Source: a virus (taxonomy: Duplodnaviria > Caudoviricetes). Taken from it: a DNA stretch of 64,000 bases. Shown here piece after piece: positions 2,132 to 57,512 of this stretch (position 1 is its first letter; every line of letters begins with the position of its first letter). The DNA is taken from IMG/VR virus record IMGVR_UViG_3300044846_003573; one strand, written 5' to 3'. A program made the position numbers and the translations under genes. The notes under the pieces were generated by a model. That model searched no databases and was not told the DNA's origin. It saw nothing but the letters and a program-made list of their open reading frames with translations.

Positions 2132-2704
2132 ATGAAAAAAGAAAAAGTTATTAGATTAACAGAAAATGAACTTATTAATTTAATTAAAAAAGTTATAAAA
2201 GAAAACGATGATTTAACTGCAAAAACACCTGACCAATTTCGTAAGGAAGTATCAGGTCTTACAGGTTCTGAAGTTCTTATGTTTAATGCTTATGGTTTAA
2301 ACAAATACACAGGTGAAAGCGGAATTTTTAAGGGTAAAAGAACTTCTGAAAACTATAAAATAAAAGAAGTTGGAATAACAACAATTAATAATTTACCAAC
2401 AGTTGAATTTACAGTTCAAGATATTTCGACAGGTGCGGGAGTTGATGGTTATACAGGTACTTTTTTGAATGTAAAAAGACGTAGTGAACCTATTAAATTC
2501 AGATGGAATTGTAACTCAGCATTTGAAAAAGGATTAGGGGAAATTAATCAACCTTTCCAAAGAAAAGGTGGTATTAAAGAAGATTATCTAAATAACGATT
2601 TAGCAAAAGTAATTACATCAAGACCGTTTTGTACTTATAAAGGAACTCCTGATTATGTAGTACCAATTAAACCGAACACATCATATAGAGGTGCTCCAAG
2701 ATAA
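2132..2704 (+). CDS. Putative virion-internal protein with KVIRLTENEL leader
   Basis: MKKEKVIRLTENELINLIKKVIKE; TATTTAT at 2104. Confidence 0.7.
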   Translation: MKKEKVIRLTENELINLIKKVIKENDDLTAKTPDQFRKEVSGLTGSEVLMFNAYGLNKYTGESGIFKGKRTSENYKIKEVGITTINNLPTVEFTVQDISTGAGVDGYTGTFLNVKRRSEPIKFRWNCNSAFEKGLGEINQPFQRKGGIKEDYLNNDLAKVITSRPFCTYKGTPDYVVPIKPNTSYRGAPR

Positions 2705-2729
2705 AATAAAAAAATAAAAAAATAAAAAA

Positions 2730-3146
2730 ATGAAAAAAGTAGTAAGATTATCAGAATCAGAATTAACTAGATTAATTAAAACAGTAGTTAACGAAACAAA
2801 AAGAAATAAAAGAAACAGAGTTAATGAAGATGTTGAAAACTTCTTTAATCCCGAAGCAATGAGTACTGGTGGGGCAATTGCGACAATGGTTGGAACAACT
2901 ATTGCTCTTTTAGGTATTGCAGGATGGGATTATCTTAAGGAACTTTACGGTCAATTAAGAAATACTGAAGGTAAAGAAGAAGAAGCAATGGAACTTAAGT
3001 CTATTATCCGAGATTACGAAAGTAATAAAATGAATTCAGGTGAAGAAATGGATTCTGATGTTGATAGTATGGATATGGATATGGAAGACGAGGAACCAAG
3101 AGACCCAATGGCTGAGAGTATCAGAAGACACATTAGAAGACGTTAA
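2730..3146 (+). CDS. Leader-bearing protein with one hydrophobic helix and an acidic tail
   Basis: MKKVVRLSESELTRLIKTVVNE; GGAIATMVGTTIALLGIAGW hydrophobic segment. Confidence 0.7.
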   Translation: MKKVVRLSESELTRLIKTVVNETKRNKRNRVNEDVENFFNPEAMSTGGAIATMVGTTIALLGIAGWDYLKELYGQLRNTEGKEEEAMELKSIIRDYESNKMNSGEEMDSDVDSMDMDMEDEEPRDPMAESIRRHIRRR

Positions 3147-3164: not shown

Positions 3165-3191
3165 AAAAAACTCCCAATCGGGAGTTTTTTT
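3165..3191 (+). terminator. Intrinsic terminator (bidirectional shape)
   Basis: AAAAAACTCCC-AATC-GGGAGTTTTTTT. Confidence 0.8.
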
Positions 3192-3394: not shown

Positions 3395-3418
3395 AAATCC
3401 CCTCAAATGAGGGGATTT
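3395..3418. terminator. Hairpin terminator
   Basis: AAATCCCCTC-AAAT-GAGGGGATTT. Confidence 0.65.
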
Positions 3419-3455: not shown

Positions 3456-3462
3456 TATTTAT
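3456..3462 (+). promoter_or_regulatory. Putative phage late-promoter motif TATTTAT
   Basis: 4 nt before ATG 3467; the same motif precedes about 25 genes in coding orientation. Confidence 0.6.
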
Positions 3463-3466
3463 TAGT

Positions 3467-5233
3467 ATGAGGAATTTATTAACTGAAGTTAGTAAGATAA
3501 AAAATAATATGGGTTTGACAGAATCTGAAAAACCAAAGTATAGCCCTGAGGTTAAATCTCTTGTTGCGGTTTTAAAAGACAACAAAGTTTATAGTGCTCA
3601 AATCCAAAAATTTATTAATAAAATTGACGGTTTTTCAAAAGAAGGTTTAGTTGATTTTGGATTACTTACAAGAGGTATATTAAAAACTTTGAAATTAAAA
3701 GGTAATAAGGATATTAATGTTTTTGAATTTTTTAAACAACTAACTAAGTCATTAGAAAAAAGAAAAACTAAAAAAGAAGTTGTTAGTCCTGAAGAGGAAC
3801 CATCAATTTTAAATAAAGACATTTACAAGAAAGAAATATTTTTCTTACAGGTTGAACTTTTAAAATTACAAGAATGGTTAAAACAAACAGGTAAAACTGT
3901 TATTATTGTTTTTGAGGGAAGAGACTCGGCGGGTAAAGGTTCAACAATTAAGAAGTTTACTGAAAACTTAAATCCAAGATATTATAAAGTAATTGCTCTC
4001 GGTATTCCAACACCTGACGAAAGAAAGAACTGGTGGGATAGATACAGTAATCAAATTGAAAGAGGTAAGATAAACTTCTTTGATAGAAGTTGGTATAATA
4101 GAGGTTTAGTGGAACCTGTAATGGGTTACGGTTCTTCAGAAGAGTATGAAGACTTTATGGATAATGTTCAGGACTTTGAGGAGTCATTAGTTGTTGACGG
4201 TGATTATCTATTTAAACTTTGGTTCTCAATAGATAAAGAAACTCAAGCCAAGAGATTTGATTTTAGACAAAAGTCCCCATTAAAATATTGGAAGTATTCT
4301 GAGAATGATGAGAAGATGCAAGATGTGTGGGAGAAGTTTACAGAGTATAAACAAAAACTTTTTGATAAGACATCAACAGTTAACCATCCTTGGGTTGTTT
4401 TGGATTCAAATGATAAGAAAATTTCAGGTTTAAATTCAATTAGATATGTTTTACAAAATATTCCTTATACAAATAAAGATGAGGACGTTTTGAATAAAGA
4501 TTTTCCTGAAGCTATGACTGTTTTAAAACCAAATATTAATGAACAGACATCGACTATGGATTTCTATAATAAATATTTTGGTTCTGATGATAAAAAAGAA
4601 GAACCGAATTTTATGGATAAATGGTCTTCTATGGGACAACCAAAAGACCAAATGAAACCAGATTCGGGAGGTGTTGTTAGTGATATAAATAAAACAATTA
4701 AATCTGGACTTGAGACTGCTAAAAAATCTTTAGATAAAAAGTCATCAAATTCAAGCGATAGTTACGCAACAAGATGTTCAACAAGGGCTATTGACTACAT
4801 TAAAAAACAAGAAGGATTTCGTTCTGAACCGTATAAAGACACAAACGGTATTTTGACTATCGGGTATGGTCAAATAAAAATTAATGGTAGACCTGTAAGA
4901 CCTGGCGACACAATAACTGAACCGGAAGCCTCAAAAAAAGTTAATAACTATGTTAAAAATATAGTAGAACCTGAAATTTTATCTTATGGTGGTGGGCATA
5001 ATAAATTGACACAACATCAATTTGATGCCTTGTGTTCATTAAAATATAATTTTGGTGGTTACGCAAAATCAGATTTAAAGAAAGCAATACAAATTAACCC
5101 CAACCCAAACAGAAATCCGGAAATAGAAAAACACTTTACAACTGGATGGAAAGATGGTGAATTAATAAAGAGAAGAAAACATGAGTATAGTTTATATTCA
5201 AAGGGTGATTATACTACATATAACCAAGCATAG
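3467..5233 (+). CDS. ppk2: Polyphosphate kinase 2 fused to a C-terminal GH24 (phage) lysozyme
   Basis: PPK2: FEGRDSAGKG, FFDRSWYNR, KLWFSIDKETQAKRF. Lysozyme: IKKQEGFRSEPYKDTNGILTIGYG with E-X8-D-X5-T intact. Confidence 0.9.
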   Translation: MRNLLTEVSKIKNNMGLTESEKPKYSPEVKSLVAVLKDNKVYSAQIQKFINKIDGFSKEGLVDFGLLTRGILKTLKLKGNKDINVFEFFKQLTKSLEKRKTKKEVVSPEEEPSILNKDIYKKEIFFLQVELLKLQEWLKQTGKTVIIVFEGRDSAGKGSTIKKFTENLNPRYYKVIALGIPTPDERKNWWDRYSNQIERGKINFFDRSWYNRGLVEPVMGYGSSEEYEDFMDNVQDFEESLVVDGDYLFKLWFSIDKETQAKRFDFRQKSPLKYWKYSENDEKMQDVWEKFTEYKQKLFDKTSTVNHPWVVLDSNDKKISGLNSIRYVLQNIPYTNKDEDVLNKDFPEAMTVLKPNINEQTSTMDFYNKYFGSDDKKEEPNFMDKWSSMGQPKDQMKPDSGGVVSDINKTIKSGLETAKKSLDKKSSNSSDSYATRCSTRAIDYIKKQEGFRSEPYKDTNGILTIGYGQIKINGRPVRPGDTITEPEASKKVNNYVKNIVEPEILSYGGGHNKLTQHQFDALCSLKYNFGGYAKSDLKKAIQINPNPNRNPEIEKHFTTGWKDGELIKRRKHEYSLYSKGDYTTYNQA

Positions 5234-5248
5234 ATATATTTATACAAT

Positions 5249-5566
5249 ATGAAAAAGTTTATTATTACAGAAAACCAATTAGAATTTATAGTTAAAAGAT
5301 ACCTTAACGAAGACGCAAGATACGTAATGTCTTTTGATGAGTTCATGAGACATAAGAACAAAGACCAACAATATAAGTGTGGTTTTGAAAATTTATGTTT
5401 TTTGATTCATGATGGAAATCACCAAATAGATTTGGATGAAAAATTCCATGAAAAACACAAAATTCCTAATGGAATTGGTGGAACAATTTACCACGATGGT
5501 AATAATACTTATTTCTGTCCTGACTTTGGTGACGACAGACCACAAAGAACTATTCAGGTTTATTAA
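5249..5566 (+). CDS. Leader-bearing hypothetical protein
   Basis: MKKFIITENQLEFIVKRYLNE; TATTTAT at 5237-5243. Confidence 0.7.
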   Translation: MKKFIITENQLEFIVKRYLNEDARYVMSFDEFMRHKNKDQQYKCGFENLCFLIHDGNHQIDLDEKFHEKHKIPNGIGGTIYHDGNNTYFCPDFGDDRPQRTIQVY

Positions 5567-17827: not shown

Positions 17828-19213
17828 ATGAAAAAAGAAATTTTATCAGAAATTAATAGATTTAGAGAAATTAGTGGTTTGCCGTTGTTGATTGAAGGTA
17901 AAATACCTTCATCTTTTATTGACGATTTATCTAAACTTTTTAATAAATCATCAGACGAACTTTTTACGTCACTTGAAAAAAAAGAAATACCTTCATTAGA
18001 AAAAACACTCAAAACCGCTTTAGGTGATGATAGCGTAATTTTCGCTAAAAACTTACAAAAATTAAAAGCCGGAACTCTGTCACCAACATTAGAAGATAAA
18101 TTGTTAGCGTCATTAATAAGAAGTAATGATGATAGAATTAAAAATTTGGTAGAAACTACTTTTATAAAATCAAATCCTGATTTAAATCAAATCATTAATA
18201 GATTTACAAAAAGGGCTGATGGTTCATATTCTGAAATTCAACCAGGGTTAACTTATGATAAATATATTAGTAGAATGTCTCCTGAAAAATATACGGAATA
18301 TGTGAAATTACAAAATCAGTTAATTGACGCAACTGATTTAGGAGTACAAATGAAAAAATATCTAAAAGAAAGATTAGCATCTGAATTAACTTCACTTAAA
18401 ACTAAATCAATTACAACTCCTTCGGTTGAAAATATGTATAAATTATACGAACTACAAGCCAAAAAATTAGGTAAAAAACCAATTCCTATGTCCGATTTAA
18501 AACTAATTGAGGATGATATAATTAATGCTGGTGTAACACAAAAAGAAATGGTTAACTATATGATTGAGTTAAGTGGTGATGAAAAATCATTCTTAGAAAG
18601 AATGAAAATTTTTAGACAAGGTAAGAAAGAACTTGAGGGTATGGCCGGTGACTCTGTTGACGAATTAAAGAAAGGTTTATCAGGTTGGAAGAAAGGTGCG
18701 TTAGTAGTATTAGGACTTGCATTATTAGGTGGTGGTGTTTGGTATAACTGGGATAGGCTTAGATATGGTTCAAACAAAGATGTATGGAAAGAAACTTATA
18801 AAGAATCATTTAGTGATTTACCTAAAAATTTACAAAATTTTATTATTGCAAATTATGCCGGTTCTGCAGGTAGTGACCCAAACATTAAAAAAAATATCAA
18901 AAGTTTATTATTTGATAATGATGTTTTAACTATTACATTTATGGATAATACAAAAAATATTATTAAAAAAGTAACACAAGGAGAGAATGAATATTGGTCA
19001 GTAGTTGAAGGTGAACCTAAAAAAACTGAGGAAGATGAAATAATACCAACAACATATCCTAGAGATATTAATACTTCAACCGACACTAAAATTATAGATA
19101 AAATTAAAACTGATTATGGGTATGACATATCCGATTTTACTTCTGTTAAAGTTATTAGTGATAGTAAAGTTCAATTAGTTTTAAATGGTGAAACATATGA
19201 AATGTCATATTGA
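17828..19213 (+). CDS. Putative virion-internal protein with one TM helix
   Basis: MKKEILSEINRFREISGLPLLIEG; GALVVLGLALLGGGVWY. Confidence 0.6.
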   Translation: MKKEILSEINRFREISGLPLLIEGKIPSSFIDDLSKLFNKSSDELFTSLEKKEIPSLEKTLKTALGDDSVIFAKNLQKLKAGTLSPTLEDKLLASLIRSNDDRIKNLVETTFIKSNPDLNQIINRFTKRADGSYSEIQPGLTYDKYISRMSPEKYTEYVKLQNQLIDATDLGVQMKKYLKERLASELTSLKTKSITTPSVENMYKLYELQAKKLGKKPIPMSDLKLIEDDIINAGVTQKEMVNYMIELSGDEKSFLERMKIFRQGKKELEGMAGDSVDELKKGLSGWKKGALVVLGLALLGGGVWYNWDRLRYGSNKDVWKETYKESFSDLPKNLQNFIIANYAGSAGSDPNIKKNIKSLLFDNDVLTITFMDNTKNIIKKVTQGENEYWSVVEGEPKKTEEDEIIPTTYPRDINTSTDTKIIDKIKTDYGYDISDFTSVKVISDSKVQLVLNGETYEMSY

Positions 19214-22132: not shown

Positions 22133-22209
22133 GCCTTCGTAGCTCAGTAGGATAGAGCAACAGATTTCTAATCTGTGGGTCAGGGGTTCGAATCCCTTCG
22201 GGGGTACCA
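22133..22209 (+). tRNA. tRNA-Arg (anticodon UCU)
   Basis: Cloverleaf: anticodon arm ACAGA-TTTCTAA-TCTGT, T arm AGGGG-TTCGAAT-CCCTT, encoded CCA. Confidence 0.95.
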
Positions 22210-23702: not shown

Positions 23703-25391
23703 ATGAATAAAAAACAATTACACGAACAATCATTAAAAGAACTACGTAAGTTAGAATATATATTTGAGGATGCGATTGATAAATCAACTTTTTTTAACGC
23801 TAAAAACGCTAGAGCTCATTTACAAAGTTTAGGGTATAAAGTTAAACCAACATTAGATGAAGTTGGTGATATTACACCTGAGTTTTCTAGTATATTACAA
23901 AAAATAGGTTCAGCGTTTAAAAAAGAAATGCCTGATTTAAACATACAATTTGGTTCGGGTAGGGATAGTTTTCATCGAAGAATATCAGGTACCAGTAGAC
24001 ATAATAAAGGCAACGCTAATGACGTAGTTTTTTGGAAAAATGAACAAGGTGACATCAAAGAAACCGATAATGAAATATTGGATAAAATTTCAACGTTACT
24101 ATGTGCCGCAAGAAAAAGTATTCCAGGATTTACATTTATTGATGAATACAGACACGGAACAAGAAATTCAACAGGTAATCATTTTCACCTATCTTGGTCA
24201 GAGAATGGGAGAGATGAAAGTAGATTTACACCAAAGTTTTGTAATTCAATAAATGTGTCAAGTTTAGATAGTTTTGAATTTCCTGAAGTTCCAAATAATG
24301 AAATTATCGATAAAAAAGAACCGTCTAAACTTGATAAGTTTTTAGATTATGTTGGGTTAGGTGAATTGAGTGACGCGACGGCAGGTAATAAAGAAAGTCA
24401 AAAAGGACTGGTGGATAAGGCAAAAGAACTTTTTTCAGATGATGATGTGAAAGATAATGATGAAGGTTTTGAAATATTTGGATATAAATTAGACGATATA
24501 TTAGATAACGTAAAAAGTATTATACCTCAATTTGAATCTGAACAAAAGAAAAAAAATATTTTAGAAACTCTTCAGATTAGCGATATTTCAGGGATGTCAA
24601 CTTATGGAAGGAAAAATGAAAAACTTAAATCAAGAAATTTTTTTGTTATCCATCATACTGCTGGTAGGGGTGATGCTGAAAAAGTTGTTGGCATTCTTAA
24701 TAGTAGAAAAGGTGGATTAGGTGTTCAATGGGTTATAGAAAGAGATGGGTCTATTGTTCGAACATTACCTGATGGAAGTAGAGGGGCTCATATTTTAAAT
24801 TCAAGTGATTTCCCATCGGCTCCAAAAGGAATTAATAATTCTAACACTGAAGGTGTTGAAGTTGTTGGTATGAATGATGATGACATTTTACCTGTACAGG
24901 CGGTTTCTGCACTTAAATTGGTTAAATCTTTGGGGTATAGTCCTGATAGGATTTACGGCCATGGTGAAATAAATCCGGGACATAAAGCAAAAACTGAAGG
25001 TCAAACAATAAAACAATTTATTTTAAAAAATTGGGGTAATAGTGAATCTGATTATGACTATTCTATGTTTGATAATAGGGGTGGTGATATTGAAACTGAA
25101 AAAAATAATACTAAAGAACCAAATAAACTAGAAAAATTTTTAGACTATGTTGGGTTAGGAACTTTTGTAGACGCTAAACCCGGAGATAAAGAAAGTCAAA
25201 AAGAGTTAGTGTCAAAAATCCAAGATAAAAAAGATGTTAAAGATACTGGTGACGGATTTGAAATTTTTGGATATAGTGTTGATGATATCTTAGATAAAAT
25301 TGGTGATTTATTACCTCAATTTGAATCTGAACAAAAGAAAAAAAATATTTTAGAAGATATTCAAAAAATTAAATCAAAAATGATTAAATAA
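23703..25391 (+). CDS. Two-module peptidoglycan hydrolase: M15-like peptidase plus Amidase_2
   Basis: SRHNKGNANDV...HFHLS (H-x6-D...H); FVIHHTAG...IYGHGEI. Confidence 0.75.
   Translation: MNKKQLHEQSLKELRKLEYIFEDAIDKSTFFNAKNARAHLQSLGYKVKPTLDEVGDITPEFSSILQKIGSAFKKEMPDLNIQFGSGRDSFHRRISGTSRHNKGNANDVVFWKNEQGDIKETDNEILDKISTLLCAARKSIPGFTFIDEYRHGTRNSTGNHFHLSWSENGRDESRFTPKFCNSINVSSLDSFEFPEVPNNEIIDKKEPSKLDKFLDYVGLGELSDATAGNKESQKGLVDKAKELFSDDDVKDNDEGFEIFGYKLDDILDNVKSIIPQFESEQKKKNILETLQISDISGMSTYGRKNEKLKSRNFFVIHHTAGRGDAEKVVGILNSRKGGLGVQWVIERDGSIVRTLPDGSRGAHILNSSDFPSAPKGINNSNTEGVEVVGMNDDDILPVQAVSALKLVKSLGYSPDRIYGHGEINPGHKAKTEGQTIKQFILKNWGNSESDYDYSMFDNRGGDIETEKNNTKEPNKLEKFLDYVGLGTFVDAKPGDKESQKELVSKIQDKKDVKDTGDGFEIFGYSVDDILDKIGDLLPQFESEQKKKNILEDIQKIKSKMIK
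24315..25355 (+). repeat. Dispersed ~82-aa direct repeat (24315-24566 and 25113-25355)
   Basis: KEP.KL.KFLDYVGLG...GFEIFGY..DDILD....PQFESEQKKKNILE; final 44 nt identical (24523-24566 = 25312-25355). Confidence 0.9.
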
Positions 25392-25420: not shown

Positions 25421-25815
25421 TGGTGGAGATGCGGGGATTCGAACCCCGGTCCAAATATGTCGACCATAAAACACTACACGTTTAGGTCATTGTTTTTCTA
25501 AACAATCCGAAACTTCACAATTCCCTTATTTTATAGTGGTTCGGTTTACTGAGAACTAATCCTCCACTTTGTTCCTTTTCGGATAGAAACCACACCACGG
25601 TACAAGCTTCTGTTGCAAGGTTATATGCTCACCGACCCCGTTGTATACTAATCTTAGATTAGGCTACAGTTACTTCTTCAGTACGGATTAAACCGAGTGT
25701 AGAAAGTTTTGCAATTGTGTTGCCGTTTGTGTTTTAAACCAGTTTTACAGGGTTAGTTTAGCCCCGACGTGCGTTTTATGACAGATTCATACCTGTCAAA
25801 TCCAAAAACATCCCC
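25421..25815 (-). ncRNA. ssrA: tmRNA
   Basis: 5' GGGGATG...GGATTTGAC; 3' CGGGGTTCGAATCCCCGCATCTCCACCA; G3:U70 acceptor pair; internal tag ORF 25724-25659. Confidence 0.93.
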
Positions 25816-27820: not shown

Positions 27821-27849
27821 AAAAAAAAGGGGGTTTATTCCCCCTTTTT
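27821..27849. terminator. Bidirectional terminator
   Basis: A-run GGGGG-TTTATT-CCCCC T-run. Confidence 0.75.
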
Positions 27850-29898
27850 CTTTCTTGGTCTTTTCACTTTTGGTGTTTCATCAGGTTGGGCTTCAACTTC
27901 TGATATTGACACTTCCTCCTCATTGATTTCAATATTGTAGGACTTATACATTACAATTTTTTCACGTAATACTTCATCTGAAATGTAGTCTTCAATCTTT
28001 TCTTGAATCGCTCTTTTCAAAGGACGTGCTCCGTAAACATCATCAAATCCAACTTTTGAAACAAAGTCAATTACTGACTGACCGAAGTTAATGTTATATC
28101 CCAATTTTGACAAACGAGATTTCAATTTGTTAACTTCAACCAAAACAATCTTTTGAATATCGTCATTTTGAAGTGTATTGAATACAATTACCTCATCCAA
28201 ACGATTGATAAATTCAGGTGCGAAGTGGTTCTTCAATTCTTTGTTTAACATTGTTTTTTTAAGTTCTTCATTAGCATAAACATTATTAGTTTTACTAAAC
28301 CCAACACCTGCTCCAAATTCTTGCATCTTTTTCACCCCAAGATTTGAAGTCATAATAATTAAACAGTTCTTGAAATTGATTTTTCTTCCAAAACTATCTG
28401 TCATGTAACCTTCATCCAACAATTGAAGTAATGCCGAGAATATATCTTTGTGAGCCTTCTCAACCTCGTCAAATAATACCACAGAGTATGGTTTGGTTTT
28501 AACTTGTTCTGTAAGTTGACCACCTTCATCATATCCTACATAACCTGGAGGTGAACCAATCAAACGAGATACGGTATGTTTATCTTGATATTCAGACATA
28601 TCAACTCGGATAAGATTTTCATCACTACCAAAGATTTGTCTTGCCAATTCTTTTGCCAATAATGTCTTACCAACACCTGTTGAACCTAAGAATATAAATG
28701 AACCAATTGGTTTATTTGGGTCTTTGATACCTAATCTATTTCTACGAATAGATTTCGCAATCTTTGTAACCGCTTCTTTTTGTCCAATGACTGATTTATT
28801 TAACTCTTCCTCTAAATTAATAAGAGCAATTTTATCATCTAAATTAAGTTTTGTTAAAGGTATTTTTGTCATTGTTGACACTACCTCGTAAACCAATTCT
28901 TCAGAAATTGTTTTTCTATTATCCAAAAGAGTTTGTTCAAACTTTTTCTTTTCAATATCAAGTTGTGATAAAACTTTCTTTTCTTTATCTCTTAAGTTAG
29001 CGGCTTCTTCGTAATTCTGTTTTTTAACAACAAGTAATTTTTGTTGTTTAATCTCTAACGCCTGACGTTTTAATTCATCAATTATTTCAGGATTTTTTAC
29101 ATCCACCTGAGCTCTTGCTCCGACTTCATCTAAGATGTCAAACGCTTTGTCAGGGAACTCTCTGTCCGTGATATATCGCTCCGCTAAGTCAACACAGATT
29201 TGTAGAATATTATCGGTATAATTTACTTTGTGATAATTTTCGTATCTGTCTTTAACATTTTTAAGGATTTGTAATGTTTCTTCTTTTGTTGATGAACTAA
29301 CAATTACTTTTTGAAAACGTCTATCCAACGCTCCGTCCTTTTCAATTTGTTTTTTATACTCATCTAATGTTGTAGCTCCAATACATTGTATTTCACCTCT
29401 TGATAATGCTGGTTTTAAGATATTGGATGCGTCCATGGAACCTGAGGCGTTACCTGCTCCGACAATGGTATGGATTTCATCAATGAATAGAATAACATTT
29501 GGGGTTGCTTGAATTTCTTCCAAGATAACCTTTAATCGTTCCTCAAATTGACCACGATACTTTGTTCCGGCAACAACTGAATTCATCTCTAATGAAAGAA
29601 TACGTTTGTCAACCAAGTTTCTTGGACAATCACCTTCAAAAATCTTCATTGCCAATCCCTCAACAATTGCCGTCTTACCACAACCAGGTTCACCGATGAT
29701 AATTGGGTTGTTTTTCTTTCTTCTTGAAAGGATTTGAGCAATACGTAATATTTCGTCTTCTCTACCGACAACGGGGTCTAACTTACCTTCTTCGGCAAGT
29801 TTAATAAGGTCACGACTAAAATTGTCTAAAACAGGTGTACTTGAGTTAACCTCTGCTTTTTTTGGTAGTTTCCCACCTTCTTCAACTGAATCTGTCAT
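27835..29898 (-). CDS. clpC: ClpC-type AAA+ unfoldase lacking the N-terminal Clp-repeat domain
   Basis: GEPGCGKT and GSTGVGKT Walker A motifs, KYRG and GYVG pore loops, UVR motif [13 protein letters not shown] loop; start at ATG 29898, TACATTTG upstream. Confidence 0.88.
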
Positions 29899-29986
29899 AA
29901 AATAGTTTTTATTAAAATTAAATGAATTTGTTCTTAAATTCAACTACAAATGTAATTCAAAATTATTTATCATTAAAAAAAAAGTT

Positions 29987-39025: not shown

Positions 39026-39736
39026 ATGAGATTCGGAATAATTAAAACACTAGTAGAAAATAAGTTGGTAGAGTCATTCAAAAATGATGCTCTTAAAACT
39101 GATATGTATCTTTTTAACAAAAAATTATTGAAAAATAAAGATTTTGTTAAAATGATGTCAATTTATGACAACCTAAATGAAAACAAAGGTTTAGATAAAG
39201 AAACTTCCAATTACTTGGTTGAGGATATGGTTTCAGAATTTAAAAATCTAAATCTTTCAGAATCAACAAATAAATTTATTAAAAGTTGGACAAAAGATAT
39301 TGTTTTAGAAAACAAATACGAAACTATTGATGATTTATTGTATGGTGATTTGATAAAACCTGAAAAAAAATCAATTGCCAAAAAGAAAATTGTTGAAAGT
39401 TTAACTAAAACTAAACCAATTGTTGAAAATAAAACACCCAAAGTTCCAATTAGTTCAATGTTAAAAGTTGCTAATAAAACTGCTGAAAAATATTTAGAAA
39501 ATTTAACTGAATCGGAAAGAAATTCAATTAAAGAAATTTTAACTTCAAAAGAAGAAAATTTAAAAAGTAAATTTGACGAATTAAAAGAAAATGCGGTTCA
39601 AAAAATTGACATATTAATTTCAGAATCTGATGAAGAACTTAAAAATGTTTTAGTTGAAACAAAAGAAAGAGTTACAAACTCTAAACCATCTAAAAAAGAA
39701 TATATTAAGTTATTGAGCTTAACTCAAAATTTATAA
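39026..39736 (+). CDS. Hypothetical head-module protein
   Basis: Between portal and protease; TATTTAT at 39002. Confidence 0.7.
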   Translation: MRFGIIKTLVENKLVESFKNDALKTDMYLFNKKLLKNKDFVKMMSIYDNLNENKGLDKETSNYLVEDMVSEFKNLNLSESTNKFIKSWTKDIVLENKYETIDDLLYGDLIKPEKKSIAKKKIVESLTKTKPIVENKTPKVPISSMLKVANKTAEKYLENLTESERNSIKEILTSKEENLKSKFDELKENAVQKIDILISESDEELKNVLVETKERVTNSKPSKKEYIKLLSLTQNL

Positions 39737-40474: not shown

Positions 40475-41194
40475 ATGCAAAATTATAAAATATTAGGTCC
40501 AAGAGAGACAGGAAAGGGTATTTTAATTGAGATGGATGCGGGATATGTTTCCCCAACAGAAAAACATAATCAAACATTCTTACAAGAAAGTAGGGATTTT
40601 AAAGATTATTCAAAACCATTTGAATTTTATGCCGTTCTACAAAAATATAATACACCAAATAGAAATGGTAGAATATATCCCGAAAGAATTCTAAAGAGAG
40701 AATCGGATAACTATATTAAAAATTATATAGGTAAGAAAACATCCTTATCTGAACTTAACCACCCTGAGTCTTCATTGATAGATTTAGATAGAGTATCACA
40801 CATGATTACAGAGATGTGGTGGGATGGTAATGTTCTATTAGGTAAACTATTACTTCTGACTTCACCAGGGTTTCATGAAAGAGGTATTGTATCAACAAAG
40901 GGTGACCAAGCTGCAAACCTATTAAGATTAGGTGTAACGTTAGGTATATCATCAAGAGGGGTAGGTTCATTAAAAAAGGTAGGTGACCAAAATGAAGTTC
41001 AAGATGATTTTGAATTAATTTGTTTTGACTTGGTATCTTCACCATCAACACCTGGAGCTTATTTATTTACTGAACCTGATGGAAGATTTGCGTTTGAAGA
41101 GAACCTACAAGAAGAAAATGAAATGAAAGCCGCAAGAACAGTTAACAAATCGCTTGATTTAATGGGAAGACTTTCCGATTATTTAAAAAAATAA
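40475..41194 (+). CDS. Prohead protease (T4 gp21-like)
   Basis: NRNGRIYP, SELNHPE, GISSRGVGS, DLVSSPSTPGA. Confidence 0.93.
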   Translation: MQNYKILGPRETGKGILIEMDAGYVSPTEKHNQTFLQESRDFKDYSKPFEFYAVLQKYNTPNRNGRIYPERILKRESDNYIKNYIGKKTSLSELNHPESSLIDLDRVSHMITEMWWDGNVLLGKLLLLTSPGFHERGIVSTKGDQAANLLRLGVTLGISSRGVGSLKKVGDQNEVQDDFELICFDLVSSPSTPGAYLFTEPDGRFAFEENLQEENEMKAARTVNKSLDLMGRLSDYLKK

Positions 41195-42916: not shown

Positions 42917-44767
42917 ATGGGAGCATTATTAGAAAGTGGATTAGTAGGTAACATCGGTCTTAAGCACTTGAAAGTTATCAAAGAAGACACTATAAACAAA
43001 TGGGACAAATTAGGGTTCCTTGAAGGTCTTAGAGGCCACCTAAAAGAAAACGTTGCTCAGTTGTATGAAAACCAAGCATCATTCTTAATTAACGAAGCGG
43101 CTTCAACTGCTGATTCAGGTTCATTCGAAACTGTGGTATTCCCTATCATCAGACGTGTGTTCTCTAAATTATTAGCTAACGAAATCGTATCTGTACAAGC
43201 TATGAACTTACCAATCGGTAAATTGTTCTACTTTGTACCTCAAATTCAAGGTTATTCTGCAGCAACTCCAACACAAGGAGCTTCAGGAGAAGCTGGACAC
43301 AGAGCACCTGTAGGTTCTCCTGGAAACTATCCTGGTGACCCAAATGCTGGTTACACTGATTCAACTGCGTATCCAAAGAACCTTTATGATTTATTCTATG
43401 AAGGAAATGAACCAGGTTTAAACCCATCAGGTCTTTTTGATTATTCAAAAGGTGGTTGGTATTGGGTTACTGGTGCAACTAACCAAGTAGTTTGGTCAAA
43501 CGGTTCATTAGTAGTATCTGGATATGGTTCAGGTGAATACAGAAAATTACTTTTAGTAATGTCTGGTTTCACATCAGTAGGTGACGGTAAGTTAATTGGC
43601 CCTGATGGACAAGAAATGGATACTGAAACATTCCTTTCTGATTTAACTTTATTACCAACTTCCGCATTAGCAGCAAGAATTAACGCATCTGGTGGTAATG
43701 TTACTACTTCTACACCACTTTTATTCCGTGTTGTTACACAAAAATACGGTAAAGGTATTGTTGAATATGGTACTAACAAAACTACAACATGGCCAGGTGG
43801 AGCGACTCCTGGAAATGGAGGTTCGTTCTATGATGTATGTAGTGCTGATGGTGTTATCTACTTAGAAGTTGATTTACAAACACCAGCATGTATCTCTTGT
43901 GGAGCATCTACTCCTGATGGTTACACTGGAACTACTTTCACAACTACTTTAACGGGTGTTACAACTAACACTGCAGTTACTGCATATTGGAAGCGTTACC
44001 AAGAGTTAGAATTTGAAGACAAAATTGGTGAAGTTTCTTTCGACCTTCAATCAGTAACAGTTTCTGTAACTGAAAGAAAGTTAAGAGCACAATGGTCTCC
44101 AGAACTTGCTCAAGACGTTGCAGCGTTCCACAACATCGATGCTGAAGCTGAATTAACAGCTTTATTATCTGAGCAAGTGGCAGCTGAAATTGACCGTGAA
44201 ATTTTACGTGACTTACGTAAAGGTGCAGCTTGGACATTACGTTGGGATTACAACGGATGGAAGCGTCTGAACAACCAATCAACTCCTTACACTCAAAAGG
44301 ACTGGAATCAAACGTTGATTACTGCAATCAACCAAATTTCAGCTCAAATCCATAAGTCTACTTTAAGAGGTGGAGCTAACTGGATTGTTGTATCTTCTGA
44401 AATCAGTGCTATCTTTGATGACTTGGAATACTTCCACGTATCAAACGCGGCTCCTGAGCAGGACCAATTCAACATGGGTATCGAGAGAGTTGGTACATTA
44501 AGTGGTCGTTACCAAGTATACCGTGACCCATACTTCCCACCAAACACTGTGTTGATTGGTCACAAAGGTACTTCGTTATTGGATACTGGATATATCTACG
44601 CTCCATACGTACCATTACAATTAACTCCAACAATGTATAACCCATTCAACTTTACTCCTATCAAGGGTATTATGACACGTTACGCTAAGAAGATGGTTAA
44701 TAACCGTTTCTATGGACGTATCATCGTTGATGGTGTTCGTACATTCGATTTGAATGAATTAAGATAA
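42917..44767 (+). CDS. Major capsid protein (T4 gp23-like)
   Basis: FPIIRRVF...VSVQAMNLP.G.LFY, RKLRAQWSPELAQD..AFH.IDAEAEL, YAPYVPL, GIMTRYA. Confidence 0.96.
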   Translation: MGALLESGLVGNIGLKHLKVIKEDTINKWDKLGFLEGLRGHLKENVAQLYENQASFLINEAASTADSGSFETVVFPIIRRVFSKLLANEIVSVQAMNLPIGKLFYFVPQIQGYSAATPTQGASGEAGHRAPVGSPGNYPGDPNAGYTDSTAYPKNLYDLFYEGNEPGLNPSGLFDYSKGGWYWVTGATNQVVWSNGSLVVSGYGSGEYRKLLLVMSGFTSVGDGKLIGPDGQEMDTETFLSDLTLLPTSALAARINASGGNVTTSTPLLFRVVTQKYGKGIVEYGTNKTTTWPGGATPGNGGSFYDVCSADGVIYLEVDLQTPACISCGASTPDGYTGTTFTTTLTGVTTNTAVTAYWKRYQELEFEDKIGEVSFDLQSVTVSVTERKLRAQWSPELAQDVAAFHNIDAEAELTALLSEQVAAEIDREILRDLRKGAAWTLRWDYNGWKRLNNQSTPYTQKDWNQTLITAINQISAQIHKSTLRGGANWIVVSSEISAIFDDLEYFHVSNAAPEQDQFNMGIERVGTLSGRYQVYRDPYFPPNTVLIGHKGTSLLDTGYIYAPYVPLQLTPTMYNPFNFTPIKGIMTRYAKKMVNNRFYGRIIVDGVRTFDLNELR

Positions 44768-56196: not shown

Positions 56197-56788
56197 TCTT
56201 TAAATTTGTAATTATTTCGTCTAATTCTTTAATTTTTTCAATTGTTTTAGACGAGTTTATTTTTTCGTTATAAAGGGTTTTATATTTTATAACTTTGTTA
56301 TTGTAATTAATAAGAATATCAGGGTTAGAAGTAACTATTAAATCAAAATCATTCAGAATTTGATTTTTTGTTATTTCATTATAGAAAATTATTCTTTCAA
56401 ATTGACAACTAAACTTTGATAAAAAAAATAATGTAGCTGGTTTTGATTTTGAAATCTCATCGGAAATAATTGTAAATTCAATATCATTTCTATGTTTAAC
56501 ATAAATTTCATTTAAATCCGCAAATGTCATCATTTCACTTGATGGTGAGTGTCCAAAAATTTCCATAGGACAATCCTCAAACATAAAGGAAAACATTTCT
56601 TCTTTTGAAGGAAATAAAAAATGATTAAATAAATCTAAAGTATCGATTGGCTCAACTATTGAATATTCAAATTTGTTTTCATCTTCTTCAATACCATCTG
56701 TTGATTGAATTAAGAATTTATCGTAAACACTTTTAAATTTACTTATGGTATCTCTTAATACACCATTAACCTCAATTCCTATCTTCAT
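56162..56788 (-). CDS. HAD-superfamily 5'(3')-nucleotidase-like protein with degenerate motif I
   Basis: MKIGIEVNGVLRD versus canonical IGIDxDGV. Confidence 0.55.
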   Translation of the reverse strand: MKIGIEVNGVLRDTISKFKSVYDKFLIQSTDGIEEDENKFEYSIVEPIDTLDLFNHFLFPSKEEMFSFMFEDCPMEIFGHSPSSEMMTFADLNEIYVKHRNDIEFTIISDEISKSKPATLFFLSKFSCQFERIIFYNEITKNQILNDFDLIVTSNPDILINYNNKVIKYKTLYNEKINSSKTIEKIKELDEIITNLKNVKNTGGTLLH

Positions 56789-57512
56789 ATCTTTTTAATA
56801 TTTCAGTAATCAATGGATTTCTAACAACATCTTCATCTCCAAACTCATGAACTCCAATCTCGGAAATATTTTTAAATTTTTCAATTGCATCCCACAAACC
56901 TGAATGTTTTTTATCTTTATATCTGTCAGTTTGTTCTAAATCACCTGAGATAAAAAATTTACTGTCAGTACCAATACGAGTTAATAATAATTTCATTTGT
57001 TTTGGAGTGGCATTTTGAGCTTCTTCAAATATTAAAATAGAGTTATCAATATTCATCCCTCTCATGTAGGCTAAAGCAAAAACTTCAATAACCTCCATTT
57101 GTTTTAATTTTTCTCTCGCTTCTTTACCTATAATTTTATTTAAAAGATAATATGATGGGAAAATATATGGGTCTAGTTTTTCTTCAACGTTACCAGGCAA
57201 AGAACCAAGTTTTTCTTCTGCTTCAACTGCGGGTCTAACTATGATAATCTTTTCGTAAGGTGAAGTATGGTCAGCAATTAAATCAACCGCCGCTTTCATT
57301 GCTATAAAACTTTTACCAACACCTGCAGGACCTGAACAAATTGTAATTTGATTTCTAACTAATTTATCGTAATACTCTCGTTGACTTTGAGTTAAGAATT
57401 TATCCTTACTCTTTTTAATCATACCACTAATTTGGTCTTTCTTAGACATTTTTGGTTTAGAGTCAGTAGGAATATATTGACTGTCTTTACTAATTGTTTT
57501 TTTTCTTGTCAT
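56772..57512 (-). CDS. phoH: PhoH-family ATPase
   Basis: GPAGVGKS, RPAVEAEEKLGSLPG, YMRG, EEAQNAT, GDLEQTD, VVRNPL. Confidence 0.95.
   Translation of the reverse strand: MTRKKTISKDSQYIPTDSKPKMSKKDQISGMIKKSKDKFLTQSQREYYDKLVRNQITICSGPAGVGKSFIAMKAAVDLIADHTSPYEKIIIVRPAVEAEEKLGSLPGNVEEKLDPYIFPSYYLLNKIIGKEAREKLKQMEVIEVFALAYMRGMNIDNSILIFEEAQNATPKQMKLLLTRIGTDSKFFISGDLEQTDRYKDKKHSGLWDAIEKFKNISEIGVHEFGDEDVVRNPLITEILKRYEDRN

Follow-up and report, generated by a model that had tools for sequence, protein, structure and literature searches.

Organization of the locus

The window (the whole stretch of DNA analysed here, 64,000 nucleotides in length) belongs to a phage of roughly 300 kb with T4-type head genes, the contig being estimated as 52% complete in its IMG/VR record. 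The habitat of the phage is lake water. The locus discussed here consists of a single long gene, in which a polyphosphate kinase 2 (PPK2) and a GH24 lysozyme share one reading frame, and of its immediate surroundings. The features are as follows; class-A leaders are described further below.

2132..3146, plus strand: two upstream genes of 190 and 138 aa with class-A leaders (L-T-E ... I-K-E and L-S-E ... V-N-E, respectively), from the paired-motif search
3165-3190: second terminator-like hairpin, from the same search as the next one
3395..3418, plus strand: terminator-like hairpin ending the upstream unit, with a 10-bp stem, 5 G-C pairs and a T-rich tail
3456..3462, plus strand: promoter-like TATTTAT box, 11 nt 5' of the start codon
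3467..5233, plus strand: PPK2-lysozyme ORF, a stop-free frame of 588 aa and 68.2 kDa (stop counted in the coordinates)
3467..3523, plus strand: leader, residues 1-19, a predicted propeptide cut after E19, with an amphipathic helix at 2-14 and L-T-E at 17-19
3545..3769, plus strand: helical accessory domain, residues 27-101, four helices (pLDDT 82-89), specific to this PPK2 subfamily
3809..4480, plus strand: PPK2 catalytic domain, residues 115-338 (Pfam PPK2, E 2.7e-70)
3917-3940, plus strand: Walker A, GRDSAGKG, residues 151-158
4082-4096, plus strand: Walker B, DRSWY, residues 206-210
4535..4543, plus strand: junction I-N-E, residues 357-359, followed by Q360, a predicted prohead-protease site
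4544..4780, plus strand: variable low-complexity linker, residues 360-438 (pLDDT 30-37), hypervariable among homologues
4802..5185, plus strand: GH24 lysozyme domain, residues 446-573 (Phage_lysozyme, E 6.1e-19)
4811-4813, 4838-4840 and 4856-4858, plus strand: GH24 catalytic residues E449, D458 and T464, the triad E449-X8-D458-X5-T464 being complete
5249..5566, plus strand: downstream gene of 105 aa with a class-A leader (I-T-E ... L-N-E), its synteny kept in relatives

Both enzymes are intact, the PPK2 half being class-I-like and the other half a GH24 muramidase, and one ORF holds both. The match of the PPK2 half to PF03976 (237 bits, against a cut-off of 22.3) spans profile positions 2-227 of 229 and is thus full-length, and its Walker motifs, F-E-G-R-D-S-A-G-K-G-S and F-D-R-S-W-Y-N-R, which are near-invariant across 82 homologues, align with those of the Francisella PPK2 5ll0 (E 8e-65). 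The nearest NCBIfam model, TIGR03707 (PA0141 type), gives 268.3 bits, below the cut-off of 301.8 that defines membership of the equivalog. The chemistry to be expected of such an enzyme would be the formation of an NTP from polyphosphate and an NDP. The GH24 half matches PF00959 with 69 bits (cut-off 22.3) and its motif set aligns with the solved endolysin 7m5i; there is also a weak match to phrog_2083, annotated as an internal virion lysozyme motif (E 2.3e-5). The helical domain at 27-101 had 59 matches among 1.84 billion representatives; all the informative ones were joined to PPK2, and none to any other protein family. Domain profiles and motifs thus confirm what had been read from the letters in the original prediction, i.e. 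one ORF with a leader, a complete PPK2, a junction, a linker and an intact GH24 domain.

Terminator-like sites are more frequent in the region than expected (4 vs 0.8). The TATTTAT box is found in the sense orientation at positions -45 to -1 of 49 out of 167 genes, as opposed to 2.5 expected from the genome density and 14 in the antisense orientation, and it precedes the TerL, portal, protease, scaffold-like and tail sheath genes. A DnaB-like helicase gene has one too, so the box does not fix the timing of expression, and its use as a mark of late genes was dropped. The run search returned no RNA runs containing the stretch.

The fusion is real and recurrent

Since sister phages do have two separate genes with a 1-base overlap, one could argue that a chimeric contig, a lost stop or another error of assembly or gene calling has joined two neighbouring genes in a single record. 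We consider this practically negligible. Unitigs from other lake-water runs that span positions 4079-4754, 3851-4675 and 4421-5300 cross the junction without a single difference or indel, the stretch is present in at least 19 runs from about 20 studies, and the fused architecture is found in about 60 protein clusters from independent metagenomes of four sources (JGI, ENA, Logan and NCBI). Moreover, the fused forms have a junction of their own, V-L-K-P-N-I-N-E-Q, that is missing in the split forms. The artefact reading is refuted by these three lines of evidence, and the concern about a chimera voiced with the original prediction is settled by the unitigs and the clusters.

A search of 50,697 deposited phage genomes retrieved neither a fused homologue nor a DNA match, its best PPK2 hits being uncultured huge phages with 43-51% identity, and an exact look-up of the 588-aa protein found no record. 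The remark in the original prediction that this pairing is not a recognised one therefore holds for cultured phages, but not for public metagenomes, where the pairing is common and annotated simply as polyphosphate kinase 2.

Head genes and the prohead protease

The window encodes a Gp23 major capsid protein (MCP), a Peptidase_S77 protease, a portal and TerL. Three elements outside the locus are needed for the discussion:

40475..41194, plus strand: prohead protease, gp21 / Peptidase_S77 (PF03420, E 4.4e-26; 34% identity to T4 gp21, E 8e-27)
43088..43096, plus strand: I-N-E of the MCP, residues 58-60, aligned with the T4 gp23 maturation site
56772-57512, minus strand: PhoH ORF

The protease is presumed to be the enzyme that processes the PPK2-lysozyme precursor. 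H85 and S140, the catalytic pair of T4 gp21, both have conserved counterparts in the aligned sequence. Its own autocleavage site, L-I-E19|, aligns with L-I-E9| of T4 gp21, and I-N-E60|A of the MCP aligns with L-T-E65|A of T4 gp23; we take the specificity of the protease from these two aligned T4 sites, which are known from experiment in T4, at the 34% identity given above. In T4 the N-terminal 65-residue part of gp23 is removed, gp21 processes the core proteins, and the capsid-targeting sequence is about 10 aa long (PMC9958956).

The density of [LI]-x-E tripeptides proved a weak marker of scaffold proteins: it is enriched in the 236-aa ORF at 39026-39736 (12 vs 5.2 expected), but not in the 450-aa scaffold-like ORF (10 vs 10.6 expected). 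As for PhoH, it does lie in the window as originally noted, but it says little about phosphate-limited hosts, since it is near-ubiquitous in such phages.

The N-terminal leader

The protein has L-T-E at residues 5-7 and at 17-19, and structure prediction places the latter in a disordered stretch (pLDDT below 50 at residues 16-22). The whole protein has 7 [LI]-x-E tripeptides, against 5.9 predicted from composition; the count is at chance level, so the significance of the motif rests on conservation and position. An [LI]-x-E ending at residues 12-40 is present in 102 of the 119 homologues, while shuffled sequences give 52.6 on average and never more than 66. Conservation concerns the motif rather than a fixed sequence: 18 different tripeptides occur, 12 different residues are found in the middle position in a set of 76 distinct leaders, and the E column stays aligned even though the length of the spacer varies. 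The N-terminus thus looks like a T4-type short leader ending in [LI]-x-E, predicted to be accessible and conserved among homologues.

The same type of leader is found on proteins that have nothing to do with PPK2 (window ORF 17828, L003:2792, L011:5937 and others). A related type, the class-A leader (M-K-K-x-V-R-L-T-E-S-D-L ... V-I-x-E), is present on at least 12 further proteins, 18 ORFs have paired N-terminal [LIV]-x-E motifs where 4.4 are expected, and, altogether, at least 15 unrelated proteins on half a genome have leaders of these kinds. The leader-bearing proteins were identified by the looser paired-motif search and by a leader profile; of two stricter regular expressions, one gave 0 matches and the other retrieved the gene itself and chance matches only. 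The leader type is portable across unrelated proteins and would direct them to the capsid, even though leader-like N-termini on so many proteins may have a function other than capsid targeting.

The junction and the exchange of modules

The junction I-N-E is exactly where the original prediction had put it (4535-4543). All extended homologues retain V-L-K-P-x-[IV]-N-E-Q, whichever module comes next; [IV]-x-E at this place is likewise present in all of them, and it is seen in 91% of the occupied alignment rows. Part of this conservation could come from the whole PPK2 module being so highly identical, and a gp21-type enzyme would have to accept V at P3, as in the V-N-E of some homologues, and Q at P1'. 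According to the structure prediction, a disordered segment of 75 residues (357-431) opens at the junction; the only long stretches of disorder in the protein are those that contain the junction and the leader site, and the remaining seven [LIV]-x-E sites of the protein are in folded elements. As the phage has a gp21-family (Peptidase_S77) prohead protease, the cleavage site originally predicted here is of the right type. A complex prediction of protease residues 20-239 with junction residues 335-400, run without controls, gave a score of 0.00, which weighs neither for nor against cleavage.

Variability changes abruptly at this point. Up to the junction the identity is 88-100% across 58 clusters and after it 23-91%, the fall right across the junction being from 88-100% to 23-44%, and the modules behind the junction comprise six GH24 subtypes, Hydrolase_2 (SleB-type), Phage_lysozyme2 (tail-lysozyme-type) and unknown ones. 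Unitigs of co-occurring strains branch at nt 4545 and 4754. By sequence comparison, the hydrolase modules are exchanged like cassettes.

The two enzymes also occur apart. In L003, L004 and L005 the PPK2 ends at V-L-K-P-E-N and is adjoined, with a 1-nt overlap, by a separate 298-aa GH24 gene whose product has its own 13-residue leader ending in I-L-E|Q. All 23 full-length stand-alone relatives of this lysozyme likewise have a leader ending in [LI]-x-E (13-14 residues in 21 cases, class-A-like in two), followed in each case by the S-D-P-x-N module. These leaders are non-hydrophobic and interchangeable with a class-A leader or with the whole leader-PPK2 part. PPK2 and lysozyme thus occur as a fusion or, in sister phages, as two neighbouring genes. 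In the closest PPK2-only forms there is a leader but no lysozyme nearby, which makes the link between PPK2 and a hydrolase lineage-specific.

A proposed head-cargo polyprotein and its alternatives

We propose that this gene of a lake-water T4-type jumbo phage codes for a polyprotein that is carried as head cargo, a reading to which, on sequence evidence, we give a probability of about 0.58. The packaged and split polyprotein of the original prediction is thereby supported in part: the fusion is real and recurrent, a gp21-type protease is present, both sites are conserved and predicted to be disordered, and the lysozyme of the split genes has an [LI]-x-E leader of its own. Packaging, cleavage, injection and the benefit of a delivered PPK2 are what we infer from this. 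The amphipathic N-terminal helix would act like the T4 capsid-targeting sequence and carry the precursor of 68 kDa into the prohead's scaffolding core, where the activated prohead protease would cut after E19 and E359, giving a 2-kDa leader, a PPK2 of about 40 kDa (residues 20-359) and a lysozyme of about 26 kDa that starts at Q360. Both enzymes would remain in the DNA-filled head and exit through the tail at infection; the lysozyme would open the peptidoglycan locally, and PPK2 would enter the cell and make GTP and ATP from host polyphosphate ahead of any phage gene expression. Fusion would allow one leader to load both enzymes in equal numbers, while the sister phages spend a leader on each. 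Against the proposal count the lineage-specific link between PPK2 and a hydrolase and, as regards delivery, that a 40-kDa PPK2, normally oligomeric, would need to unfold, traverse the tail tube and refold. In the literature searched there was no virion proteome of such a phage, and no paper on PPK2 in a virion, on PPK2 together with internal head proteins or on its fusion to an endolysin.

The main competitor, unlikely in our opinion yet deserving attention, is a bifunctional protein that stays in the cytoplasm and is never packaged: PPK2 would be an auxiliary metabolic enzyme making NTPs from polyphosphate, GH24 an endolysin that reaches the wall through holin lesions as part of the uncleaved 68-kDa protein, and the N-terminal 110 residues an accessory or oligomerisation part, which would fit a helical domain that is found with PPK2 only. 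Virus ppk2 genes on freshwater contigs have been reported as auxiliary metabolic genes and, in the accessible parts of those reports, treated as expressed in the infected cell (PMC13188868; PMC9636769). GH24 is also a classic endolysin family, its best solved matches here are endolysins, and the swapping of catalytic domains is typical of endolysins. In addition, there is no second GH24, GH19, SleB, tail-lysozyme, SLT or M23 gene on the contig, the sole other wall hydrolase being a 562-aa Amidase_2 protein; however, the contig is about half of the genome and a canonical endolysin may be elsewhere. That no further wall hydrolase and no hub of the gp5 type turned up on the contig carries no information, the record being about 52% complete and the Gp5_OB control having matched nowhere. 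No holin or spanin is evident among the neighbours of the gene, where lysis genes gave no match, small membrane proteins being hard to recognise and half of the genome being covered. A cytoplasmic protein would leave unexplained why 23 out of 23 full-length stand-alone lysozymes have non-hydrophobic, interchangeable [LI]-x-E leaders, why the same leader types are present on many unrelated proteins, and why both motifs fall in the only long disordered segments.

It is also conceivable, though rather improbable, that the protein is packaged and processed without its PPK2 half serving as a delivered metabolic enzyme. PPK2 could act mainly as a carrier or core component that takes the variable wall hydrolase into the head, or have another role in the assembling or infecting particle, e.g. 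one connected with envelope polyphosphate or with countering a nucleotide-depleting defence. The hydrolase is indeed the variable, host-facing part and PPK2 is nearly invariant, but an inert carrier would not need the intact catalytic motifs that are kept across 119 homologues. The intact Walker A and B motifs suggest that catalysis is retained, and leader-bearing PPK2 exists without any hydrolase, so PPK2 has a role of its own; both observations would suit another role as well, but the sequence gives no pointer to any one of them.

Returning to the head-cargo polyprotein, we also venture a wider, tentative generalisation, which we hold with some doubt: that a widespread lineage of freshwater jumbo phages with T4-type heads uses interchangeable N-terminal [LI]-x-E leaders to load many varied proteins into the capsid. 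One of them would be PPK2, injected with the DNA and converting host polyphosphate to GTP and ATP from the first second of infection; it would be synthesised in one self-splitting polyprotein together with an exchangeable wall hydrolase that clears the entry path. If true, this would be the first case of a virion delivering an energy-metabolism enzyme, and also the first of two enzymes sharing one prohead-protease polyprotein. For phage auxiliary metabolic genes it is assumed that they work only once expressed in the host, and a ready-made kinase would extend the concept to pre-loaded metabolism; a PPK2 arriving with the DNA could account for the way in which large phages begin to infect lake bacteria that are starved and store polyphosphate. 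From the fused and split forms of the gene pair there also follows a clear and testable rule for predicting, by sequence only, which proteins of this abundant, uncultured phage group are capsid cargo: a leader comes first, [LI]-x-E follows, and then the mature protein. Finally, portable leaders and a matching protease are the ingredients for loading foreign proteins into T4 heads, for which a second, more varied natural system would help.

Comparison with known systems

The two halves have different counterparts. The PPK2 half resembles class I enzymes (Francisella 5ll0/4yeg, S. meliloti SMc02148 3czq, P. aeruginosa PA0141) in its single domain and identical Walker A and B motifs, and differs from them in the 110-residue leader and helical domain, the phage origin, the fusion to a hydrolase and the score below the TIGR03707 cut-off. 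With respect to the virus ppk2 surveys (PMC13188868, PMC9636769), the accessible parts of these do not discuss a leader, a wall-hydrolase fusion or a virion location. The lysozyme half is comparable to T7 gp16, T4 gp5 and PHROG 2083, i.e. muramidases or transglycosylases of the particle that are used at entry, as predicted here, and T4 gp5 is also matured by cleavage. However, gp5 belongs to the T4 baseplate and is no substrate of gp21, gp16 of T7 is part of a podovirus core, and neither is fused to a metabolic enzyme.

As for the loading of the head, giant phages of the phiKZ-like/SPN3US type package many proteins that lose propeptides to a gp21-related protease cutting after Glu, and deliver a virion RNA polymerase (PMC5694885). 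Propeptides of head-packaged proteins, enzyme delivery and a Glu-cutting protease are thus shared features, predicted here from genes alone, but those phages are another lineage: the motif is A/S/G-x-E, the propeptides are often longer than 100 residues and there is no PPK2 or lysozyme among the cargo (PMC5694885).

A further parallel is T4, in which the internal head proteins and Alt are described as having a capsid-targeting sequence and being processed by gp21 (Mullaney and Black 1996, as cited in PMC9958956). The protease, major capsid protein and portal are homologous, and the cargo genes are scattered beyond the head module in both. The leaders are short, N-terminal and end in [LI]-x-E, as can be seen from the starts of Alt (M-E-L-I-T-E-L-F-D-E), gp24 (M-A-K-I-N-E-L-L-R-E) and gp22 (M-L-K-E-Q-L-I-A-E) of T4, and an enzyme is delivered with the DNA, Alt in T4 and, as predicted from genes alone, PPK2-lysozyme here. 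In contrast to T4, the present phage has longer leaders, of 13-30 residues, which form two or more sequence classes, and at least 15 leader-bearing genes on half a genome are far above the number in T4. The cargo differs as well: T4 internal proteins lose a small N-terminal peptide only, whereas here a metabolic kinase and a wall hydrolase would be released from one precursor through an internal site.

Domain structure of the PPK2-lysozyme protein

The gene at window 3467-5233 (+) is a single stop-free reading frame of 588 codons. The original prediction had read it as a complete PPK2 followed by a GH24 lysozyme with intact motifs, and had placed I-N-E between them at 4535-4543; the Pfam matches and motif positions confirm all of this.

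Features of the PPK2-lysozyme protein
residues 2-14, helix (AlphaFold2 model)
residues 16-22, disordered stretch holding L-T-E 17-19 (AlphaFold2 model)
residues 27-101, four-helix domain (AlphaFold2 model)
residues 115-338, PPK2 domain (Pfam, E 2.7e-70)
residues 117-353, PPK2 core (AlphaFold2 model)
residues 151-158, PPK2 Walker A G-R-D-S-A-G-K-G
residues 206-210, PPK2 Walker B D-R-S-W-Y
residues 357-359 (nt 4535-4543), junction I-N-E
residues 357-431, disordered segment starting exactly at I-N-E (AlphaFold2 model)
residues 439-579, lysozyme fold (AlphaFold2 model)
residues 446-573, Phage_lysozyme (GH24) domain (Pfam, E 6.1e-19)
E449-X8-D458-X5-T464, lysozyme triad in the GH24 domain

By alignment, the PPK2 motifs match those of the solved Francisella PPK2 5ll0 (E 8e-65) and the GH24 motifs those of the solved endolysin 7m5i (E 2.5e-12). 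The nearest NCBIfam model for the kinase is PA0141-type PPK2 (TIGR03707), at 268 bits, below its equivalog cut-off of 301.8. The protein contains 7 [LI]-x-E motifs vs 5.9 predicted from composition, so a lone motif is unremarkable and any significance must derive from conservation and context. In the AlphaFold2 model (82 homologues as input, mean pLDDT 74) the remaining seven [LIV]-x-E sites all lie within confidently folded helices or strands. The helical accessory domain (residues 27-101), which bears a weak, sub-threshold resemblance to the DpnI_C winged-helix domain, also occurs with PPK2 inside the far longer proteins of clusters P0190 (1430 aa), P0193 (1116 aa) and P0198 (639 aa), whose other 400-1000 residues gave no Pfam match.

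At least 19 metagenome runs of lake water, belonging to about 20 studies, contain the stretch. Unitigs of other lake-water runs, none of them marked as a potential source of this DNA, span 4079-4754, 3851-4675 and 4421-5300 with 0 differences and 0 indels, crossing the junction cleanly and excluding the chimera that had been considered. About 60 of 5.8 billion protein clusters (JGI, ENA, Logan, NCBI) have PPK2 and a wall-hydrolase domain in one frame, with 48-95% identity to the PPK2-lysozyme protein; the unitigs and these clusters together rule out an assembly or gene-calling artefact. The fusion was found in 0 of 50,697 deposited phage genomes. The nearest PPK2-only forms have no hydrolase among their neighbours and a more distant relative has a GH19 gene 1 kb upstream, so the pairing is recurrent, not universal.

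The phage and its prohead protease

The record is a linear contig of 155,988 bp with an estimated completeness of 52%; relatives are found on contigs of 271-298 kb, which puts the probable length of the full genome close to 300 kb. Among the genes of the window are those for a large terminase, a portal, the Gp23-family major capsid protein and a prohead protease of the Peptidase_S77 (gp21) family. The closest cultured capsid proteins are those of Flavobacterium phage vB_FspM_immuto and Microcystis phage Mel-JY01 (~42% identity). This protease and T4 gp21 share 34% identity (E 8e-27), and the positions of gp21 H85 and S140 are both conserved in the alignment. Two experimentally known T4 sites have counterparts here: the gp23 maturation site F-L-T-E65|A-E-I-G-G aligns with F-L-I-N-E60|A-A-S-T-A of the capsid protein, and the gp21 autocleavage site L-L-I-E9| with I-L-I-E19| of the protease. 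T4 gp23 loses its 65 N-terminal residues (PMC9958956). Since both sites align to [LI]-x-E, the T4 rule of cutting after the Glu very probably applies in this phage, and its capsid protein appears to use I-N-E, the very tripeptide of the PPK2-lysozyme junction.

Further features of the window
23703-25391 (+), 562-aa protein, Amidase_2 at residues 312-426, paired [LIV]-x-E at the N-terminus
27835-29943 (-), 702-aa Clp/Lon-type AAA+ 'ATP-dependent protease' (phrog_4871, E 4e-237)
39026-39736 (+), 236-aa ORF between portal and protease genes, second in the genome in [LI]-x-E density (12 vs 5.2 expected)
42917-44767 (+), major capsid protein, 616 aa, Pfam match confined to 337-603, with a ~270-residue Gly/Thr/Ser-rich insertion separating its T4-like N-terminal part from the HK97-fold core
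22133-22209 (+), tRNA-Arg(TCT) (ARAGORN)
25421-25815 (-), tmRNA gene, tag peptide ending T-V-A (ARAGORN)

Such a density in the 236-aa ORF would fit a core protein that the protease breaks down. The Amidase_2 protein may be a second leader-bearing wall hydrolase or the true lysis enzyme, and the AAA+ protease might be an alternative reader of N-terminal tags.

A TATTTAT box precedes the PPK2-lysozyme gene as well as head and tail genes and a helicase gene. Of 167 genes, 49 have the box 11-28 nt ahead of their start codon vs 2.5 expected (e.g. window 3456-3462 and 5237-5243), with the commonest spacings at -12 and -21 to -24. This is probably the phage's principal promoter element, and it is not limited to structural genes.

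Conservation of the leader and the junction

The PPK2 proteins begin with a leader, a short N-terminal stretch ending in [LI]-x-E that is predicted to be removed by the prohead protease. The motif ends at residues 12-40 in 102 of 119 homologues, compared with 52.6 on average, and never more than 66, in shuffles. Across 76 distinct leaders 12 different residues occur at its middle position, with L/I and E constant; in the alignment a spacer of 0 to 8 residues separates helix and motif, the Glu column is fixed, and an acidic/Ser-rich stretch follows.

A search with the PPK2-type leader profile found non-PPK2 proteins carrying it at the extreme N-terminus, followed by [LI]-x-E. A related leader, class A (M-K-K-x-V-R-L-T-E-S-D-L-x-x-I-V-K-R-V-I-x-E), occurs on at least 12 further, unrelated proteins of the contig (C1).

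Examples of leader carriers in the window, the contig and loci of relatives (L003, L011)
17828-19213 (+), PPK2 type, 461 aa, M-K-K-E-I-L-S-E-I-N-R-F-R-E-I-S-G-L-P-L-L-I-E, function unassigned, no PHROG match
L003:2792-3178, PPK2 type, 128 aa
L011:5937-6275, PPK2 type
2132 and 2730, class A, both upstream neighbours
5249, class A, downstream neighbour
9253, 11565, 12425(-), 46776(-) and 47221(-), class A
C1:139986-148926, class A

Paired [LIV]-x-E among the first residues occurs in 18 ORFs vs 4.4 expected from internal frequency, and syntenic genes of relatives bear the same leaders. T4 Alt, gp24, gp22, gp67 and gp68 have N-termini of like type, with one or two [LI]-x-E. A further family, of small proteins starting M-K-Y-L-I-T-E-S-Q-L, is encoded in tandem arrays at C1:152867-155989 and C1:144167-144805.

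Apart from the leader and the folded domains, the junction alone has a conserved [LIV]-x-E column. All homologues extending past the PPK2 domain keep V-L-[KR]-P-x-[IV]-N-E-Q, I-E-E-Q or I-G-E-S...I-N-E-T, irrespective of partner; the predicted cut has Gln at P1' ([IV]-N-E-Q) and, in part of the homologues, Val at P3. PPK2-only homologues terminate 0-5 residues past V-L-K-P. Residues 1-359 are 88-100% identical in 58 clusters, and past them identity is 23-91% or the sequence is unrelated (100% upstream and 40% downstream in cluster P0011).

Partners found behind the junction
GH24, at least 6 subtypes
Hydrolase_2 (SleB type), 11 clusters
Phage_lysozyme2, 6-7 clusters
unassigned module, 3 clusters
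short non-enzymatic tail, 3 clusters

Exchange is also seen in unitigs from strains of one shared lake: some diverge at nt 4545, within the Gln codon after I-N-E, into the linker of clusters P0038/P0044, others at nt 4754 into the lysozyme subtype of P0009.

A sister phage from three lake samples has the same gene order (tRNA-synt_2 (-), PPK2, lysozyme, 105-aa leader gene, DUF6878 (-), DUF6915 (-)) with the two enzymes split. Its 366-aa PPK2 ends V-L-K-P-E-N-stop, and a separate 298-aa GH24 gene, starting M-N-L-V-K-I-L-R-N-I-I-L-E|Q-K-S-D-P-K-N-P, overlaps the stop by one base; this T-A-A-T-G (L003:9101, L004:1672, L005:3224) suggests translational coupling. A search with the 298-aa lysozyme returned 24 clusters, one of which (P0227) is a fragment of a PPK2-GH24 fusion, truncated at its N-terminus. 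In 21 of the 23 others a non-hydrophobic leader of 13-14 residues closes with [LI]-x-E, where x is L, K or N, and S-D-P-x-N comes next; the remaining two have a class-A-like leader before the S-D-P-K-N module (L-T-E ... L-T-E in P0228, L-T-E ... L-N-E in P0231). In the fused P0112 and P0115 a complete leader-PPK2 occupies the leader position. Judged by these alignments, the predicted mature lysozyme is one module that can follow a short leader, a long one or a leader-bearing enzyme, with [LIV]-x-E always at the seam.

Proposed mechanism

We consider a packaged, cleaved and ejected polyprotein the most likely mechanism, with a probability of about 0.58. The leader would carry the 68.2 kDa precursor into the prohead core, where the protease would cut after E19 and E359 into a PPK2 of ~40.1 kDa and a lysozyme of ~25.9 kDa. 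Both would be ejected at infection, the lysozyme to work on the wall at the entry point and PPK2 to regenerate NTPs immediately from host polyphosphate. A constant seam would be expected if processing took place there and the lysozyme had to be led somewhere.

The main alternative, a bifunctional protein that is never packaged and serves as auxiliary metabolic enzyme and endolysin, agrees with the established roles of the PPK2 and GH24 families, and a search of the 155,988-bp contig (completeness ~52%), about half the genome, found no further lysozyme. We regard it as less likely, as one lysozyme module behind such varied leaders, always joined at [LIV]-x-E, fits poorly with an ordinary cytoplasmic endolysin. 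To packaging with the role of PPK2 left open we give only slight weight.

Comparison with known systems

Viral ppk2 genes are already known from surveys (PMC13188868); our literature search found no report of a PPK2 leader, a PPK2-hydrolase fusion or a virion location of PPK2. The proposed system would work like the capsid targeting and gp21 processing of T4 (PMC9958956) and the ejection proteins of phiKZ-type phages (PMC5694885). It differs from both in that the cargo is a metabolic kinase, the polyprotein has an internal site between two enzymes, the hydrolase is swapped as a cassette, and the leaders differ in number and variety.
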